DNA of 64,000 nt from NCBI GenBank assembly GCA_934122275.1, contig CAKOWI010000003.1:29952-93951 (forward strand). Direction: 5' to 3'. A model generated the notes under the pieces. The model was not told the origin of the DNA, made no database searches, and worked only from the letters and a program-made list of their open reading frames with translations. Origin of the DNA: an uncultured Bacilli bacterium (GTDB taxonomy: Bacteria > Bacillota_I > Bacilli_A > RF39 > UBA660). This document shows, piece after piece, positions 6,120 through 53,218 of this stretch. A program made the translations under genes and the position numbers. The first letter of the stretch is position 1, and the number at the start of each line of letters is the position of its first letter.

Positions 6120-6749
6120 ATGCTTAGATTATTTAACAAAATAAGTGTAAACGAACAAAAAAAACTACTAAAACTATTAGAAACTAGTATATTAAGCTAC
6201 AAAAAAAATACCACAATTTTATCTACAATAGAAGGAAATATTATTGGTATTGTACTAGAAGGAAACATACAAATAATAAGAACTGATTATAACGGAAATA
6301 GAACCATTATAGAAGATTTAAAGGAAGAATCTATATTTGGTACAATAATATCCTCACTATCTAGCAACGAATATGAAGTAATAACAAAAGAGGATAGTAA
6401 AATATTAGTTATTGACTATGATTTTATTATTAAATCAAATAATAACAAATACTTATATTATAACCAGTTTATTAAAAATTTACTTGATATAACAACAAGT
6501 GAAATTGATAAAAAAAATGATAGAATAGAAATATTGACTCAAAAAAGTATTAGAGATAAATTACTTAAATACTTTGAAATATATTCTAGAAAAAGAAAAA
6601 CAAGTATAATCTATCTTCCATTTACCTTTACTGATTTAGCAGATTTTCTAGCAGTTGATAGAAGTGCAATGTCAAGAGAATTAAAAAATTTAAAAGAAGA
6701 AGGTTTTATTAATACTAAAGGAAGAAAAATAACACTTCTATATAGATAA
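6120..6749 (+). CDS. Crp/Fnr family transcriptional regulator
   Basis: cNMP-binding-like N-terminal half and a C-terminal HTH (TFTDLADFLAVDRSAMSRELKNLKEEGFI). Confidence 0.7.
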   Translation: MLRLFNKISVNEQKKLLKLLETSILSYKKNTTILSTIEGNIIGIVLEGNIQIIRTDYNGNRTIIEDLKEESIFGTIISSLSSNEYEVITKEDSKILVIDYDFIIKSNNNKYLYYNQFIKNLLDITTSEIDKKNDRIEILTQKSIRDKLLKYFEIYSRKRKTSIIYLPFTFTDLADFLAVDRSAMSRELKNLKEEGFINTKGRKITLLYR

Positions 6750-16362: not shown

Positions 16363-18135
16363 TTATTTTATCTGATTATTTATTATATCCTGTATTTCTT
16401 TTTTGCATCCTTGTGTTATTTGTTTATAATAGCTTTCAGTTATTACCTTTTTATTTTCTGTATATGTATAGGTTTTATCCTTAATAATATTAAATTTATC
16501 TTTATTTATATTCAACTTATCCAAACTTATATTACCTTCGAACATATGTCTTATATCAATTATACTTGAGGTATCAAAATTTCTTATATCAAGTTTTTTT
16601 AATTTAGGACAGCTACTAAACATGTGTACCATGGTAGTTACTTTTGGTGTACTAAAATAATTAGGATTTAAATCACTGCCTAAATCAAGTTCTTCTAATT
16701 GGCCACAGTTATAAAACATATGTTGCATGGTAGTTACTTTTGATGTATCAAATCTTAATTTTAATGCTTTTACAGAACTAGACGAAAACATAAATCCCAT
16801 AGTTATTACATTTGACGTATCCCATCCACTTAAATCAAGCACATCATAATCAGTTAAACGCGTATCAAAAAACATTCTTCCCATACTAGTTACGTTTGAT
16901 GTATTCCAACTTTCAATGCCACTTATCTTTTTAAGATTTTTACATTCGCCAAATACATATGTCATATTAGTAACTTTTTCTGTATTAAAACTGCTTACAT
17001 CTAACTCCGTTAAGTTTGTACAAGCCCAAAACATATGTGAAATACTATTAACATTTTTTGTAATAAACTTTGTCACATCGATATTAGTTATCGTTGAACA
17101 GCCAGCAAACATTTGCACCATTCCACCTACTTTTTCTGTATTAAAAGACGTTAATCCATTTATACTTTCCACTTTACTGCAGCCATGAAACATATAACTC
17201 ATAGTTGTTACATTATTAGTTTTAAAACCGCTTACGTCTAACGACTTTATTTTAGAACAACTATCAAACATACTTTGCATAGTTATTACATTATCAGTTT
17301 TAAAATGACTTACATCAAGTGATTCTAAAACTAAATTTCCCATAAACATATACGACATATCTGTTACATTTGATGTATCTAGTGTCTCTATACGTGTAAT
17401 TTTTTTTAGACTACTGTTGTTATTTTTATTAAATGAAAATAATTTACTTGAATTAGGATTAGCATATACTTTTTTTCTATTAAATGTTATATGAAATATA
17501 TACTTTCCTCTATTATTTGGATCATCTCTCAATATTCCCCATACAGTTCCATTTCCATTTGCACTTATGTCTTCCTTAAGCACCCAATCACCGTCAGTAG
17601 GTTCTGCTGTTTCTTTATAAAATACAACCTCTGTTATATCTCCCGTATAGCCTGATAGCTTATTTTGTAAATCTGGTCCAGTTGTTAAAACTGCTATTCC
17701 AGACTTAATATATAATTTATAAGTTAATTCTTTTCCTAAATATTTACCATCTTTTAACCCGAATACTGTTGAATCACGATCTTTATATTTAAAAGTTAAT
17801 ACTGAGTACATTTCACTACCTATAGTTTGAGTGTCTTTAACTACTTTTGATACTGTAAGATTGCTTCCTATCTTCCTTAGAAAAGAATTATTAAGACTAT
17901 TTGTAGAATCTTTTTCTATACAGTTATTTAAATTTTCTTCTATTGAACAATAATCTTTAACTAACCTTAATGTATATGTGCTTTCTGTAAATTGATTAGT
18001 TTGTATTTTTGCTCTTTTATATAATTTACTTACTGTGCTTACCGTTTGATAAAAATATAACATTGCAACACTAACTAGTGCAAAACTTACTATTAATTCT
18101 ACTAACGTTAATCCCTTTTCATTTAGTTTTTTCAT
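16363..18135 (-). CDS. Surface protein with a prepilin-type N-terminal methylation leader fused to BspA/DUF285-type leucine-rich repeats
   Basis: N-terminus MKKLNEKGLTLVELIVSFALVSVAMLYF. The C-terminal half carries about 10 repeats of the pattern LD(V/T)S.F.T..VT.M..MF..C..L typical of DUF285/BspA LRRs. Confidence 0.75.
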   Translation of the reverse strand: MKKLNEKGLTLVELIVSFALVSVAMLYFYQTVSTVSKLYKRAKIQTNQFTESTYTLRLVKDYCSIEENLNNCIEKDSTNSLNNSFLRKIGSNLTVSKVVKDTQTIGSEMYSVLTFKYKDRDSTVFGLKDGKYLGKELTYKLYIKSGIAVLTTGPDLQNKLSGYTGDITEVVFYKETAEPTDGDWVLKEDISANGNGTVWGILRDDPNNRGKYIFHITFNRKKVYANPNSSKLFSFNKNNNSSLKKITRIETLDTSNVTDMSYMFMGNLVLESLDVSHFKTDNVITMQSMFDSCSKIKSLDVSGFKTNNVTTMSYMFHGCSKVESINGLTSFNTEKVGGMVQMFAGCSTITNIDVTKFITKNVNSISHMFWACTNLTELDVSSFNTEKVTNMTYVFGECKNLKKISGIESWNTSNVTSMGRMFFDTRLTDYDVLDLSGWDTSNVITMGFMFSSSSVKALKLRFDTSKVTTMQHMFYNCGQLEELDLGSDLNPNYFSTPKVTTMVHMFSSCPKLKKLDIRNFDTSSIIDIRHMFEGNISLDKLNINKDKFNIIKDKTYTYTENKKVITESYYKQITQGCKKEIQDIINNQIK

Positions 18136-19066: not shown

Positions 19067-19143
19067 GGCGATGTAGCTCAGCTGGCTAGAGCATCCGGTT
19101 CATACCCGGAAGGTCGTGAGTTCGATCCTCACTGTCGCTACCA
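19067..19143 (+). tRNA. tRNA-Met (anticodon CAU), elongator type
   Basis: GGCGATGTAGCTCAGCTGGCTAGAGCATCCGGTTCATACCCGGAAGGTCGTGAGTTCGATCCTCACTGTCGCTACCA folds as a cloverleaf with D-arm GCTC/GAGC, anticodon stem CCGG/CCGG flanking the loop TTCATAC, T-arm GTGAG/CTCAC and an encoded CCA. It closely resembles the Bacillus elongator tRNA-Met as I recall it. A lysidine-modified tRNA-Ile2 cannot be fully excluded. Confidence 0.85.
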
Positions 19144-19157
19144 ATTGTGAATAACTA
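19138..19157 (+). repeat. Direct repeat copy 1 (attL-like): CTACCAATTGTGAATAACTA, covering the last 6 nt of tRNA-Met and 14 nt downstream
   Basis: Matches 21998-22017 at 19 of 20 positions. Confidence 0.8.
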
Positions 19158-19181
19158 ATTCAGAAATGGATTAGTTTTTTT
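19153..19181 (+). terminator. Intrinsic terminator after tRNA-Met
   Basis: AACTAATTC-AGAAAT-GGATTAGTT hairpin followed by a T-run. Confidence 0.6.
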
Positions 19182-19643
19182 GTTGTTAGAAAATATCCTT
19201 GAAAGAAAGAATGGTATTATGTTAAATATTATTAAAGAGGAATTACCTATTGAAAAATCGTTAAAAAGGAAGTTAGAACTAATGTGTGATTTTTCTAAAA
19301 CAACACATACTATTATAACTTGGAATATTAGAAAGATAGATAAAACAGCTGAAACTCTTACCGAAAATAATAAAGCACTTACTTTAAACAATAATACCAA
19401 AGAATAGAATAATGAAATATCTTTTTTAAAATCTAAAATAAGTGGTTTAAGAAAAACGATTGAGTATCGGAAAGATAAATTTGATAAACTAATATCATTC
19501 TTATATAGTAAATTTCATAATTGACATGATAAAGACGATAAATATATTAATGTAGTTAACGATATGTATTAAAATAACGTTTTAAATGATGATGATATTA
19601 AAGAGTTAAATTTAAATAAGAAACAAGAAGATTTTAAAAGATA
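19180..19643 (+). pseudogene. Gene remnant: one reading frame of about 155 codons interrupted by TAG (19405), TGA (19522) and TAA (19570); coiled-coil-like, possibly the C-terminal part of a plasmid/ICE mobilisation or replication protein
   Basis: My conceptual translation is ...KALTLNNNTKE*NNEISFLKSKISGLRKTIEYRKDKFDKLISFLYSKFHN*HDKDDKYINVVNDMY*NNVLNDDDIKELNLNKKQEDFKR*. There are far fewer stops than random AT-rich sequence would give. The family assignment is a guess. Confidence 0.35.
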
Positions 19644-19709
19644 ATTTAAGAATTATTAATAAAATATTAGATAATGGTGATATAATAAATAATCACAAGG
19701 AGGATTAAT

Positions 19710-20408
19710 ATGGAATACAATGTTTATTGTGACGAAAGCTGTCATTTAGTAAGTAATGATAGCAATTATATGTTAATCGGTGCAATTTCTTGCCCTAAGA
19801 ACAAAGTAAAAAAAGTAAATGAATATATAGAACATTTAAAAGAAAACTATAATATTTCTAATAAAATTGAGCTAAAATGGAACAAGATTGATAAAAAAAC
19901 AGAAAAATTATATTTAGATATTATTAATTATTTCTTTAATAATGATGATTTAAAATTTCGGGTTATCGTTATAGATAAAACAAAATTAACCCACGAAAAA
20001 TATAATCAAACTGAAAACGATTTTTATCATAAAGCATATTACGAAATGCTAAAATACATTATTGTTCCAGGAAATTCATATAATATTTATCCTGATATAA
20101 AAGATACAAACTCATATTATTATCATCAAGTAATGCTTAATTATTTAAGAATTAAAATGGCAGATTATAATAAAAAGACTATTCGTAAAGTTCAACCTAT
20201 TAGATCTTATGAAGCTCCTATATTACAAATAAATGATATATTAATTGGAGCATTATCTTATTATTACAGAAATCTATCAAATAATAGTGTAAAATTAAAC
20301 ATTATATCAGAAATCAAAAAATTGTATCAAAATGACTTGAATACAACATCATATTGTAGTAATACGAAGTTTAATATATTTATGTGGAGATCAAGAAATG
20401 ATATCTAA
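19710..20408 (+). CDS. DUF3800-like protein
   Basis: The N-terminal YCDES motif and C-terminal LQINDILIGAL resemble the conserved Y.DESG and Q.AD motifs I associate with DUF3800. AAGGAGG RBS upstream. Confidence 0.6.
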   Translation: MEYNVYCDESCHLVSNDSNYMLIGAISCPKNKVKKVNEYIEHLKENYNISNKIELKWNKIDKKTEKLYLDIINYFFNNDDLKFRVIVIDKTKLTHEKYNQTENDFYHKAYYEMLKYIIVPGNSYNIYPDIKDTNSYYYHQVMLNYLRIKMADYNKKTIRKVQPIRSYEAPILQINDILIGALSYYYRNLSNNSVKLNIISEIKKLYQNDLNTTSYCSNTKFNIFMWRSRNDI

Positions 20409-20904
20409 TAAATGTGGACTGAACGGTCCATTACCTGAAACAACTACTAATGATGAATTATATGATTACTTTATAAAAAATATATACTATGGTGATTTAA
20501 AAATAAATGGAATGAGAATTAAAGTATTTACAACGCCATTTGAAGATAATAAAATGCAAGGGTTCTTTCATTTAACAACTAAAACGCAAAAAAATTCTGG
20601 AATAAAAATTCGAATGAAAGAACCAAGAGCATATTTTATAAATTATATTGTACCGATGATAAAAAACTATTTAAATTGTCCAACTTGTGATGATTCAAAA
20701 TGTAGTAAAATAAAAATTTGGACTGCTCCATATAAAAATATTAAGAGAACCAAATTATTATACTGTGATGATTTATATAGTTATATAATAATTCTCGAAA
20801 GAAGTAAGAATGATATGTATATAATTAGTTCATATTTAATTGATGAACCAGGATATTTAAAAAATGTATTAAAAGAATACGATAAATACAAAAAATCCTC
20901 TTAA
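20398..20904 (+). CDS. Hypothetical 168-aa protein, translationally coupled to the DUF3800-like gene
   Basis: Overlaps the upstream gene by 11 nt. Contains a CPTCDDSKC cluster and a C-terminal YSYIIILERSKNDMYIISSYLID strand pattern reminiscent of small RelE/barnase-like nuclease folds (weak). Confidence 0.5.
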   Translation: MISNKCGLNGPLPETTTNDELYDYFIKNIYYGDLKINGMRIKVFTTPFEDNKMQGFFHLTTKTQKNSGIKIRMKEPRAYFINYIVPMIKNYLNCPTCDDSKCSKIKIWTAPYKNIKRTKLLYCDDLYSYIIILERSKNDMYIISSYLIDEPGYLKNVLKEYDKYKKSS

Positions 20905-20928
20905 ATTAATTTAAGAAGATTTTAAATT

Positions 20929-21000
20929 AAAAAAAACGGATAACGCAACTAATAAAAGTTGCGTCTCCAGGACTCATATAACCCTTGGTCATTGAGTAAC
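20929..21000 (-). ncRNA. Candidate ~72-nt small RNA, convergent with the DUF3800 operon
   Basis: A consensus promoter (TTGACA-17-TACAAT) lies just upstream. The predicted RNA has a 5' hairpin (ACUCAAUGACC-AAG-GGUUAUAUGAGU) and a terminator hairpin (ACGCAACU-UUUAUU-AGUUGCGU) followed by U8. It contains no ORF. Confidence 0.5.
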
Positions 21001-21003
21001 TAG

Positions 21004-21032
21004 ATTGTAGCACAAATTACATTTAATGTCAA
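21004..21032 (-). promoter_or_regulatory. Near-consensus SigA promoter: TTGACA (21032-21027), 17-nt spacer, TACAAT (21009-21004)
   Basis: Read directly on the minus strand; the spacer ends in TGC. Confidence 0.6.
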
Positions 21033-21277
21033 TCCATGGAAATTTTTGCACCACATTATATATTATTCCTCATATTATATTAATATACATAGATATGAAT
21101 AACATTTATTAGCAATCTGTATAGTAATAATGAACTGTTAATTTCCGTTTCCTAATTCTGTTTTATATTCGTTTTAACCAATTTAACAGAGAACATTGAA
21201 AAAAAACATCATTTAGTATATAATAAATCTCACATTTTTATGAGATATTTTATATTCAAATTTATGGAAGTGGTTTT

Positions 21278-21952
21278 ATGCTATTAAAGGATAAATATTT
21301 TCATAGCATTCACTCATATATTGATACATCCTATAGACACATAATGCTAGATGATATTATTGATAAAATGGAAAAAATATTTCGTTGTGGTTTTATCTTA
21401 CCATATAAAGATATAGTAAGAATTTATGGTAATGTTATATCAAGAAATAATTATGTAACTTTAAATGGATCAGATTATATTTCAATATCACTTCACGAAT
21501 CTAATCCACAAAAAATTGATATTGAATATAAAGAAAAAATATCGAATTGCGAAAATGCTTTTCAAAGTTTTATCATACAAGAACCATCAATTGTTTTAGA
21601 ACCTAATATAGCGAAAGATTTAAAGTTTTTAAATTATAACGGAATATATCTTGAAAGATTAGTGGCTGAACCCGTTTCATTAGAATATATGAGTGCAATT
21701 TCAATATTTGCACCTGGAATGTTAGAACCATTTTTTAACAATATACCCGAAACACAATATTATAATTGTTTTAATGATTCATCGTTTAGAATAATAACTA
21801 TAGAATATTTAGATAAGATTATAGAATTAATTAAAAAATATGGGTATGATATTCCGGTTGTTGATATATGTACAGGTAATTCATATAAAGAAAATGAAAA
21901 ATACAGAGAATATGTAAAAACTTTAAAAAGACACTATATTTCTAGAGATTAG
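21278..21952 (+). CDS. Hypothetical protein (island cargo, no recognisable domain)
   Basis: 224-aa ORF preceded by a long 373-bp intergenic region. Confidence 0.45.
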   Translation: MLLKDKYFHSIHSYIDTSYRHIMLDDIIDKMEKIFRCGFILPYKDIVRIYGNVISRNNYVTLNGSDYISISLHESNPQKIDIEYKEKISNCENAFQSFIIQEPSIVLEPNIAKDLKFLNYNGIYLERLVAEPVSLEYMSAISIFAPGMLEPFFNNIPETQYYNCFNDSSFRIITIEYLDKIIELIKKYGYDIPVVDICTGNSYKENEKYREYVKTLKRHYISRD

Positions 21953-22151: not shown

Positions 22152-22514
22152 ATGACTTATGGTGATATTTTAAACAATTTATCAAAATCAAAATTTAGAA
22201 GTAGTTTTCATTTAAGAAAGTATATGATAGATTATATAGACAATAAAGGTTATATAGAAATTAAAAAGCATGCGTATGATTTTATAACAAAAAGACTTGC
22301 TCCGAAAGAAATACCAAACGATGGTAGGCAAACACCTATGAAAGGACATCCCGTTTTTATAGCACAACATGCTTGTGCATGTTGCTGCAGAAATTGCCTT
22401 TATAAGTGGCATAAGATACCAAAAAATAAAGATTTAAGTGAAAAAGAAATAGACTATATAGTAAATCTTTTAATGCTGTGGATAAAAAAAGAATATGAAA
22501 ATGCAAAAAAGTAA
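22152..22514 (+). CDS. DUF4186-like protein
   Basis: HPVFIAQHACACCCRNCLYKWHKIP matches the conserved Cys-rich core I associate with DUF4186. Confidence 0.55.
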   Translation: MTYGDILNNLSKSKFRSSFHLRKYMIDYIDNKGYIEIKKHAYDFITKRLAPKEIPNDGRQTPMKGHPVFIAQHACACCCRNCLYKWHKIPKNKDLSEKEIDYIVNLLMLWIKKEYENAKK

Positions 22515-52741: not shown

Positions 52742-53218
52742 TTATGAATTAATGTATTTTCTTATACTTTCTTTAAAGTTTTCACTATTAGATTCATACT
52801 TTTTTGGTTTAAACTTTTTAATATCTTCTAGTGCTTTACCTAGTTTTTTTATATCATAAACTGGTAATATATATTCTTTAGCAGCAAATTCTTTAGTTAT
52901 TTGAACTTGATGATCATTTGCATGCTCTTTATATTTCTTTAGTCTTGGAATAACTATTACCTTTTTTCCGTTTTCTATACATTCAGTAATCGTTCCAACT
53001 CCAGCATGTGATATAACTATTCTAGCTTTATTTATATAGTTTTGTATCTCATCTTTAGAACAAAAATCAAACATCTCTATCTTATCATCTGTATATTTTG
53101 TACATCCAACTTGTGCTACTACCTTTTCTTTTATTACTTTATTTTTTATTAATTTAGAAGTTTCTTTTAAAACCCTTTCAAATGGTTGATCTTGAGTTCC
53201 TAACAATATAAGTATCAT
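52742..53218 (-). CDS. Alg13-like glycosyltransferase subunit (GT28 C-terminal domain; PssE/EpsF-like)
   Basis: ILLGTQDQPFERV...ISHAGVGTI motif. The ATG at 53218 shares one nt with the upstream stop. Confidence 0.65.
   Translation of the reverse strand: MILILLGTQDQPFERVLKETSKLIKNKVIKEKVVAQVGCTKYTDDKIEMFDFCSKDEIQNYINKARIVISHAGVGTITECIENGKKVIVIPRLKKYKEHANDHQVQITKEFAAKEYILPVYDIKKLGKALEDIKKFKPKKYESNSENFKESIRKYINS

Follow-up and report, generated by a model that had tools for sequence, protein, structure and literature searches.

In a 64,000-nucleotide stretch of DNA from an uncultured bacterium of the Bacilli lineage RF39 (the window; contig CAKOWI010000003.1), two overlapping genes, here called A and B, and a small RNA gene that follows B make up a self-contained cassette of 1.36 kb. 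Comparison of the encoded proteins with known families indicates that the pair is the gut-bacterial version of rlfA-rlfB of phage P1, and the same pair that PADLOC lists as PDC-M04 (phage defense candidate, multi-gene no. 04). The original prediction for this DNA had described a two-gene candidate defense or toxin module on a tRNA islet and knew of no described system with this exact pair, a statement that the correspondence with P1 and PADLOC overturns. The pair is indeed conserved, tightly coupled and mobile, as had been supposed, but it is not the whole unit, since a conserved small RNA gene forms the third part. The earlier account ended at position 20904 and so excluded a conserved non-coding part that reaches to about 21040 (all positions are those of the window).

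Relation of the gene pair to rlfA-rlfB of phage P1

Both open reading frames (ORFs) are present as originally described, with their 11-nt overlap, an AAGGAGG site and the YCDES, Q.ND and CPTCDDSKC motifs, and the assignment of the first to DUF3800 was borne out. Protein A scores 42.8 bits against Pfam DUF3800 (PF12686; gathering threshold 21, E 1.1e-10) over profile positions 1-148 of 149, and carries YCDESCH at residues 6-12 and QINDILIG at residues 173-180. Both proteins match PADLOC models of PDC-M04: A matches the PDC-M04A model PDLC04353 (E 4.6e-74, residues 1-229 of 232), and B matches nine models of PDC-M04B, best PDLC04355 (E 7.3e-24). When annotated phage genomes were searched with tblastn, A proved to be ∼40% identical over its full length to RlfA of P1 (E 8e-52), and likewise to RapA of phage P7 and to the ‘RlfA’ of Bifidobacterium prophage Bbif-1. 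A profile of the B family (111 sequences) aligned with P1 RlfB at an hhalign probability of 99.9 (E 1.7e-33), and P1 RlfA and RlfB themselves match PDC-M04A and PDC-M04B at 1e-95 and 1e-51, respectively.

The P1 genes stand in the order rlfA-rlfB, the stop codon of the first overlapping the start codon of the second; they come directly after repL and oriL, behind the C1 operator, and are annotated as ‘possibly associated with lytic replication’. Their names are positional (“replication-linked”), and both genes are uncharacterized. Previous reports indicate that they are non-essential and dispensable for lytic growth (PMC10695390), and that P1-like plasmids carry other cargo in place of the rlfA/rlfB region (PMC6906374). 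The Bbif-1 pair lies near an integrase and an antirepressor, not near a replicon. The cassette of the window thus shares with P1 (and with rapA and its partner in P7) two homologous proteins, the A-B gene order and a structured RNA unit on the opposite strand after B. It differs in that the P1 pair adjoins repL/oriL under the C1 operator, whereas the pair of the window stands by itself on the chromosome, as a cassette with a tRNA-Met gene upstream, and in that P1 RlfB lacks the Cys cluster. With PDC-M04 it shares full-length matches to both subunit models and the adjacency of the genes; PDC-M04, however, comprises two proteins only, the RNA being outside its definition as far as the library of hidden Markov models shows.

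The pairing of the two genes was followed in a chromosomal set of one genome per species and in a viral set of 80 contigs sampled by means of protein A alone. In the chromosomal set the pair is present in 38 species, all of them represented by gut metagenome-assembled genomes of the ‘Bacilli’, ‘Tenericutes’, CAG:321 or CAG:822 type, which we take to be RF39-like. A lies directly upstream of B in 34 of these 38 genomes, the remaining four holding decayed or truncated copies, and B lies directly downstream of A in 76 of the 77 viral loci with sufficient sequence. Among 31 distinct cassettes the identity at codon position 3 is far below that at position 2 (A, 0.70 versus 0.93; B, 0.69 versus 0.92), which indicates that A and B are real genes under purifying selection. 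The idea that B evolves much faster than A was rejected, as the proteins of paired loci diverge to a similar extent (A 73-93%, B 71-89%).

An AlphaFold2 model of A, built from a diverse alignment (pLDDT 89.9, pTM 0.89), resembles the type 2 RNases H. All 21 PDB matches at E <= 1e-3 belong to that class (RNase HII, H2 and HIII, including archaeal RNase HII and human and mouse RNase H2A), the best being 1eke (E 4.9e-6, TM-score 0.53). The likeness extends to the fold (TM-score 0.45-0.55, probability 1.0) and to an adjacent Asp-Glu pair on the first strand; A differs in a sequence identity of ∼10-14% and in being accessory and mobile, with B and an RNA as its companions. Seven residues are invariant among 32 diverse members of the RlfA clade (D8, E9, E54, D129, D132, Q173 and D176), and D8, E9, D129/D132 and D176 occur in the same order as the DEDD site of RNase HII, as judged by order and motif only. 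The invariant carboxylates would fit a metal-dependent nuclease site. The model agrees with published descriptions of an RNase H2-like fold in DUF3800 (PMC7736814, PMC10910872), so that the family, originally presented as one with no established function, is better understood than was claimed. The clade comprises 5,464 clusters from many phyla, and the names listed for them are DUF3800 domain protein or hypothetical protein. Moorella phage MCACPph1 has a more remotely related DUF3800 gene (locus L055, 4040-4711; 28% identity to A), which adjoins an integrase and has no RlfB-type partner; not every DUF3800 subfamily therefore uses B.

Protein B belongs to no Pfam family and has no PDB relative by sequence search. 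Its own family forms ∼169 clusters at 50% identity, mostly of stand-alone proteins of 160-185 aa, fragments aside, with the family-wide motifs F-H-T, R-ER-W, K-W, VILE-R and LITAYY; H58 is invariant across the family, and R77 and residue 144 are nearly so. The CPTCDDSKC cluster spans residues 94-102, and in close relatives C94 and C97 are invariant and C102 is nearly so; the cluster is optional, since several distant family members lack it. The AlphaFold2 model of B (pLDDT 86.3, pTM 0.82) gave no significant match in a Foldseek search of the PDB (best E 0.14, TM-score ∼0.2). The RelE-type HigB1 reached E 0.7 with a TM-score of 0.24-0.33, and barnase was not matched. In the viral structure library BFVD the sole match was one uncharacterized siphovirus protein. 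The suggestion that B resembles RelE/barnase-type nucleases was rejected on these grounds: Foldseek returned no annotated match from the PDB or BFVD, and the Pfam and PDB sequence searches were empty. A scan of the viral contigs with an alignment of close B relatives found nothing.

A predicted small RNA gene after B

Conservation within the cassette peaks in a non-coding segment. Mean pairwise identity among the 31 distinct cassettes is 0.84 for the coding sequence of A and 0.83 for that of B, as compared with 0.918 for the RNA segment (20930-20999) and 0.971 for its 5' hairpin (20970-20997), which exceeds even codon position 2; the 25-nt spacer after the B stop codon is poorly conserved (0.48). 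Loop and unpaired bases of the RNA are near-invariant. On the minus strand the segment is preceded by a promoter-like site with 11 of 12 consensus matches and an extended -10 TG, in which the hexamers are conserved at 0.94, the spacer drifts in sequence (0.72) at fixed length, and the flanks fall to ∼0.5. From this arrangement we infer that the RNA is transcribed.

Two lines of evidence place the RNA on the minus strand. First, the predicted fold is the more stable one on that strand (-25.7 kcal/mol, z -5.9; plus strand, -19.9 kcal/mol, z -4.3). Secondly, when 32 distinct sequences are read on the minus strand, 99.8% of the terminator helix (helix 2) is paired. Its variants (GU/AU, AU/GC, CG/UG/UA and AU/GU) include two pairs changed on both sides in a compensatory manner, and the G-U variants would be A.C mismatches on the plus strand, which supports the minus-strand reading. 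With a covariance model of the RNA (R1), each cassette yielded a single match, in every case after B, and the rest of the window yielded none; loci from which A is deleted still have their copy. There is no plus-strand terminator ahead of the RNA gene, and analysis of repeats showed no tandem array of the RNA. Action of the RNA in trans on the ribosome-binding regions of A or B was tried as a candidate and rejected, as predicted duplex energies with the translation-initiation regions of the two genes were no better than those of shuffled RNAs in seven of eight tests.

The same plan of 5' hairpin, terminator hairpin and U-tract after rlfB recurs in P1, in Bbif-1 and in the fecal phage contig L054. 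In these three the 5' hairpin opens with (A/G)CUCA and closes with GAG, the shared form being CUCAUCUAY-loop-RUAGAARGAG; the sequences differ between RF39 (ACUCAAUGACC...GGUUAUAUGAGU) and P1 (CUCAUCUAC...GUAGAAAGAG). The predicted P1 RNA lies on the minus strand between rlfB and pmgF (6150-6254 of locus L014, about 52907-53011 of NC_005856), and its parts are a promoter-like site (TTGAAA-17-TAGATT, predicted at 52983-53011), the hairpin CUCAUCUACC...GUAGAAAGAG and a predicted terminator of 14 bp (52915-52946); the transcript itself would cover about 52907-52977. A promoter-like minus-strand site precedes the RNA in both P1 and Bbif-1, and a TAnnTTTG box does so in L054. Promoters of sigma-70 type are predicted for the lineages of P1, Bifidobacterium and RF39, and promoters of a Bacteroidetes type, TAnnTTTG, for L059 and L061, which suggests that the RNA promoter is adapted to the host. 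The TAnnTTTG boxes seen ahead of the RNA in the L059, L061 and L054 versions (TACCTTTG, TATATTTG) are taken here to resemble the Bacteroidetes -7 promoter element. In total the shared RNA motif spans Proteobacteria, Actinobacteria, Bacteroidetes-type and Firmicutes lineages.

In the protein-sampled viral loci the motif was found in 36 of 38 distinct sequences after B, convergent with the operon in 33 and on the same strand in three. The latter belong to three phage lineages, L178, L184 and L185. Over the 935,722 nt of these loci the motif occurs 78 times, that is about once per locus, at the site after B wherever examined, and it is thus essentially confined to that site. A blind test searched viral contigs with the short RNA motif only and yielded 80 matches. 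Of these, 26 lay 34-49 nt from the stop codon of an RlfB gene encoded on the other strand, and RlfA was also present at 24 of the 26; the other 54 matches had neither protein, consistent with a rough chance estimate for so short a pattern. Among phages the outer stem covaries from CUC/GAG to CUG/CAG, and the inner stem occurs as CUAC/GUAG, CUGC/GUAG and CUAU/AUAG.

The third component, the RNA, seems not to have been described before: it is unannotated in four annotated P1/P7 GenBank/RefSeq records, absent from Rfam and undescribed in the rlfA/rlfB/DUF3800 literature that was searched. Neither the window, the 171-nt element alone nor the P1 element matched an Rfam family, even with hits admitted up to E <= 10; the best hit on the element was ncr1575 with 28.7 bits against a gathering threshold of 60, and no DUF3800 motif of Rfam was listed at E <= 10 for the window or for P1. 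Weinberg et al. (2017, PMC5737381) described eleven DUF3800-associated motifs, DUF3800-I to -XI, as structured RNAs beside a DUF3800 gene, in either orientation and often with a Rho-independent terminator. The cassette RNA is likewise structured and beside a DUF3800 gene; however, those of the motifs that are in Rfam (RF02969 and RF02968 confirmed) do not match the element of the window or that of P1. Since the comparison covered the motifs held by Rfam, the RNA could be identical to one of the 2017 motifs missing from it.

Layout, mobility and surroundings of the cassette

The features of the cassette are collected in Table 1. The overlap between A and B has the sequence ATGATATCTAA, and a GGAG site stands 9 nt ahead of the B start codon. 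TGnTATAAT, at the left edge, is kept in nearly all of the 31 distinct cassettes, and the sequence upstream of it is unrelated. Between loci with unrelated flanks, DNA homology starts at ∼19660-19700, which is ∼30-50 nt before A, and runs 130-200 nt past the end of B, the aligned blocks stopping at 21033-21111; both edges are sharp. The palindrome at the right edge (identity 0.71) is conserved in most RF39 cassettes, with ∼0.5 identity beyond 21070, and may, as a guess, serve as a weak terminator for read-through from A-B.

Table 1. Positions of the cassette features and of the nearby tRNA gene in the window
Feature	Position	Strand	Basis or remark
Putative extended -10 promoter of the A-B operon (TGATATAAT)	19678..19686	+	Left edge of the conserved cassette
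Shine-Dalgarno AAGGAGG of A	19697..19703	+	Direct sequence reading; AAAGGAGG conserved among cassettes
Gene A, RlfA-type DUF3800, 232 aa, RNase HII-like fold	19710..20408	+	ORF call, Pfam, PADLOC, AlphaFold2
Gene B, RlfB-type partner, 168 aa	20398..20904	+	Overlaps A, own GGAG site; PADLOC
Small RNA gene, ∼70 nt	about 20927..21000 (RNA ∼20999 to 20930)	-	Covariance model, conservation, fold
RNA 5' hairpin	about 20997 to 20970	-	Best-conserved part of the cassette
RNA terminator hairpin and U-tract	20965 to 20942; U-tract ends ∼25 nt from the B stop codon	-	Terminator-like site
Predicted small RNA promoter: TTGACA (21032-21027), 17-nt spacer, TG, TACAAT (21009-21004)	21004..21032	-	Hexamers, conservation
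Palindrome TCCATGGA, then T-run	21033..21040		Right cassette edge, directly past the RNA -35 box; partly conserved
tRNA-Met (CAT)	19067..19143	+	ARAGORN; context, outside the cassette

Flanking genes differ in nearly every species, and a 100%-identical cassette occurs in locus L005 with a different upstream gene; taken together, these observations indicate that the pair moves as a unit. A same-strand tRNA-Met gene lies upstream in 21 of 36 related loci. Its distance from the start of A is ∼107-570 nt in the window and in 10 of the 21 loci (in one of which A is truncated), and ranges from 0.85 to 9 kb in the rest. The original prediction of a tRNA islet was thus right as to the tRNA neighbor but not as to an integrated element: the locus of the window lacks an integrase ORF, and neither a repeated tRNA 3' end nor an att-type repeat bounds the islet, which sets the cassette apart from tRNA-integrated genomic islands. 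Adjacency to tRNA-Met would accordingly reflect a preferred address rather than a demonstrable integrated element. The cassette carries no recombinase, and no integron integrase or cassette array lies near it.

A 2026 preprint on a tRNA-derived messenger is said to mention DUF3800. A TPR-DUF3800 protein accompanies the tRNA-cleaving Cas12a3 (PMC13594972), and the preferred neighbor of the present cassette is a tRNA-Met gene; this connection with tRNA may be coincidence.

The 145 neighboring proteins scanned, within three genes of the cassettes, are mostly housekeeping proteins (FTHFS, topoisomerase, SMC, aminotransferase). Clear defense neighbors are few, namely one PDC-S06/AAA_13, one C5 methylase and one PDC-S22, and many of the PADLOC matches among the neighbors are probably generic matches to ATPase domains. 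The RF39 cassettes are single chromosomal copies amid these housekeeping genes.

Decayed cassettes were seen at L027, L050, L053 and L046, where most or all of A is lost; in L050 the loss extends to the first 48 residues of B. Wherever sequence is available, they keep the small RNA gene intact, and decay seems to proceed from the A side, which is proximal to the tRNA. Loss of A first, with retention of B and the RNA, is what would be expected if A were the harmful part, though only three or four loci are involved.

Some further features lie close to the cassette. An exact 14-nt direct repeat (AAGAAGATTTTAAA) occurs at 19625-19638, just outside the left edge, and at 20913-20926, after the B stop codon; its rough chance expectation in such AT-rich DNA is ∼0.25, that is near chance. 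Between tRNA-Met and the cassette, a module of ∼500 nt (19150-19650) holds a 75-aa ORF (19180-19407) without a Pfam match, and recurs whole or in part at varied positions in L012, L019, L020, L023, L024 and L027. In the protein P0109 the N-terminus of this ORF is joined to the C-terminal half of B, a fusion suggestive of a deletion in which A was lost. A 590-aa protein encoded two genes ahead of the tRNA gene (16363-18135, minus strand) has an N-terminal pilin-like hydrophobic segment and DUF285/LRR repeats; its Pfam tags were taken from the L001 gene, which is identical. On the downstream side the cassette is closely followed by a 224-aa ORF (21278-21952, plus strand), for which Pfam, PADLOC, PHROGs and NCBIfam gave no match, and then by a DUF4186 protein (22152-22514, plus strand). 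Both genes occur only in the context of the window's own species (L001-L003) and are therefore outside the cassette.

Possible functions of the three-part system

We hypothesize that the cassette is a conflict module, acting in phage exclusion, abortive infection or addiction, in which A is a nuclease and B and the RNA control it; we hold the chances of this hypothesis to be about even. According to it, the extended -10 promoter would drive an operon of the RNase HII-like A and the translationally coupled B, and a separate transcription unit immediately beyond the B stop codon, usually convergent with the operon, would yield the RNA of ∼70 nt between a promoter and a terminator of its own. A would be the effector, a nuclease whose substrate is RNA or an RNA-DNA hybrid, and B and the small RNA would bind A, either restraining it or giving it specificity. 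The RNA would be a protein-bound component, comparable to the RNA-protein complexes of type III toxin-antitoxin systems or retrons, and not a simple antisense regulator. We infer that the three parts form a complex, and that its role is defense or addiction.

A conflict module is favored by the dispensability of rlfA/rlfB in P1, by the exchange of the region for other cargo, by the effector-like positions of DUF3800 genes elsewhere, by the listing of the pair as a PADLOC candidate and by the decay of cassettes from A first. That the RNA would be protein-bound is favored by its being the most conserved element of the cassette, by the three same-strand lineages and by the lack of complementarity to the initiation regions of A and B. 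A broader hypothesis, which we advance tentatively and rate somewhat short of even, is that RlfA, RlfB and the RNA constitute an undescribed, phylum-spanning and RNA-containing conflict system, with a dedicated, structured RNA of ∼70 nt to control or target its RNase HII-like nuclease. It would be carried by P1-like phages as well as by chromosomal cassettes of gut bacteria, and the RNA, acting as a protein-bound antidote, an RNA-DNA hybrid sensor or a cofactor, would be a new DUF3800-associated RNA.

The cassette may be compared with several known systems. DUF3800 takes the effector position in type VII retrons, and accompanies Cas12a2 and Cas12a3 (PMC7736814, PMC10910872, PMC13594972). A type VII retron combines a reverse transcriptase, an msr/msd RNA and DUF3800, and is presumed to be a defense module (PMC7736814); like the cassette, it joins an RNase H2-like DUF3800 protein to a dedicated non-coding RNA. 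However, the retron DUF3800 lacks the Q of QxxD, whereas the RlfA clade keeps Q173 and D176, and the cassette has an RlfB-type partner and no reverse transcriptase domain among its neighbors. Type III toxin-antitoxin systems of the ToxIN kind share the proposed logic of a nuclease held by a co-encoded small RNA. In those systems, however, the RNA comes from a tandem repeat array that precedes the toxin gene in the same orientation, and the toxin itself processes it. The cassette has one RNA unit, which follows B, has a promoter of its own and is convergent in 33 of the 36 distinct sequences; it also has a third component, a second protein, and another nuclease fold. Nor does the cassette conform to a type I system: a convergent RNA is present, but the two proteins (232 and 168 aa) look soluble and are no small hydrophobic toxin peptide, and in three lineages the RNA is on the same strand.

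The hypotheses should be interpreted with some caution, as several points weigh against them. The equivalence of the carboxylates of A to the DEDD residues of RNase HII is drawn from order and motif and not from a superposition. No defense-island signal was found in the RF39 clade, where the 145 neighbors are of the mostly housekeeping kind described above, although this is weak negative evidence, there being no background rate to compare with; the original prediction of a defense module thus finds a counterpart in the PADLOC candidate but not in the company that the cassette keeps. PDC-M04 itself is an unpublished and unvalidated candidate, of which no mention was found in the literature searched. 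Promoter-like hexamers are common in AT-rich DNA (23 found versus 22.6 expected), and it is thus by the pattern of conservation that the RNA promoter is called. The terminator hairpin in P1 could belong to the upstream pmgF transcript. Formal covariation is thin, with only two doubly changed pairs in RF39 and one outer-stem pair in phages, because the RNA is nearly invariant within lineages. Finally, the P1 pair adjoins the lytic replicon, which suggests a different role.

That role is the main rival explanation. Under it A, with B, would process an RNA-DNA hybrid of the small RNA and thereby prime or regulate replication of a mobile replicon, as RNase H processes the RNA II primer of ColE1. 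The location of the P1 pair directly after repL/oriL and the C1 operator and its lytic-replication annotation speak for such a role, and a dedicated small RNA beside an enzyme of RNase H2-like fold would fit hybrid processing. However, the window and its relatives do not share the P1 location: the RF39 cassettes are chromosomal and single-copy, with housekeeping flanks and no replication initiator, origin or replication gene nearby. Moreover, the Bbif-1 pair keeps company with an integrase and an antirepressor, P1 grows lytically without rlfA/rlfB (PMC10695390), and P1-like plasmids have lost or replaced them (PMC6906374). We consider a replication-linked role unlikely.

A second alternative confines the RNA to regulation in cis. 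As a convergent antisense RNA, or as a bidirectional terminator and promoter, the element would tune the stability of rlfAB mRNA without binding protein, and the proteins alone would be a functional two-gene module. TxpA/RatA and BsrG/SR4 are type I toxin-antitoxin pairs that overlap at their 3' ends and may serve as models. Overlapping transcripts are indeed predicted from the convergent geometry, the RNA terminator abutting the B stop codon and the lack of an intervening plus-strand terminator. Yet a cis-antisense RNA needs no conservation of sequence, and the 5' hairpin is more conserved than codon position 2 and shares its motif with lineages from Proteobacteria to Firmicutes; in the three same-strand lineages antisense pairing would be impossible, and complementarity to the A and B initiation regions was not detected. 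These observations make purely cis-acting regulation improbable in our view.

More doubtful still is the possibility that the element is a DNA site for recombination or attachment (attC-like or similar) that moves the cassette. The cassette is mobile without a recombinase of its own and has the element, with its inverted repeats, at the right end; however, conserved -35/-10 hexamers around a drifting spacer of fixed length, a U-tract after the hairpin, promoters matching the host type in each lineage (including the Bacteroidetes-type TAnnTTTG), variants that are wobble-compatible on one strand only, the absence of a nearby integron integrase or cassette array, and cassette homology reaching ∼30-70 nt past the element make this very unlikely. 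A two-protein toxin-antitoxin system, with B as a RelE/barnase-type RNase toxin and A as its partner, would suit small, overlapping and mobile genes, and the invariant His and conserved Arg, Glu and Thr of B could form an active site, but we give it hardly any credence: B lacks the fold and the relatives that such a toxin should have, the recognizable nuclease fold and carboxylates are in A, neither protein has a DNA-binding antitoxin-like domain, and the retention of B and the RNA in decayed copies fits A as the harmful part.

In conclusion, the interest of the analysis lies not in the gene pair being new, but in its tying two puzzles to one three-part system. The genes rlfA and rlfB have been unexplained in the well-studied phage P1 since its genome was annotated, and DUF3800 recurs beside retrons, Cas12a2/Cas12a3 systems and eleven orphan RNA motifs. 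By connecting PDC-M04 and the P1 gene pair with a small RNA that is highly conserved and whose ends are predicted, it arrives at a concrete hypothesis of three components, which is testable in E. coli with P1. If the RNA is integral, catalogues of defense systems that consider proteins only would miss part of the rlfAB system, and the puzzle of the DUF3800-associated RNAs would gain an experimental handle. If the system is truly a conflict system spanning phyla, P1 would be a tractable model for all DUF3800-associated RNAs.

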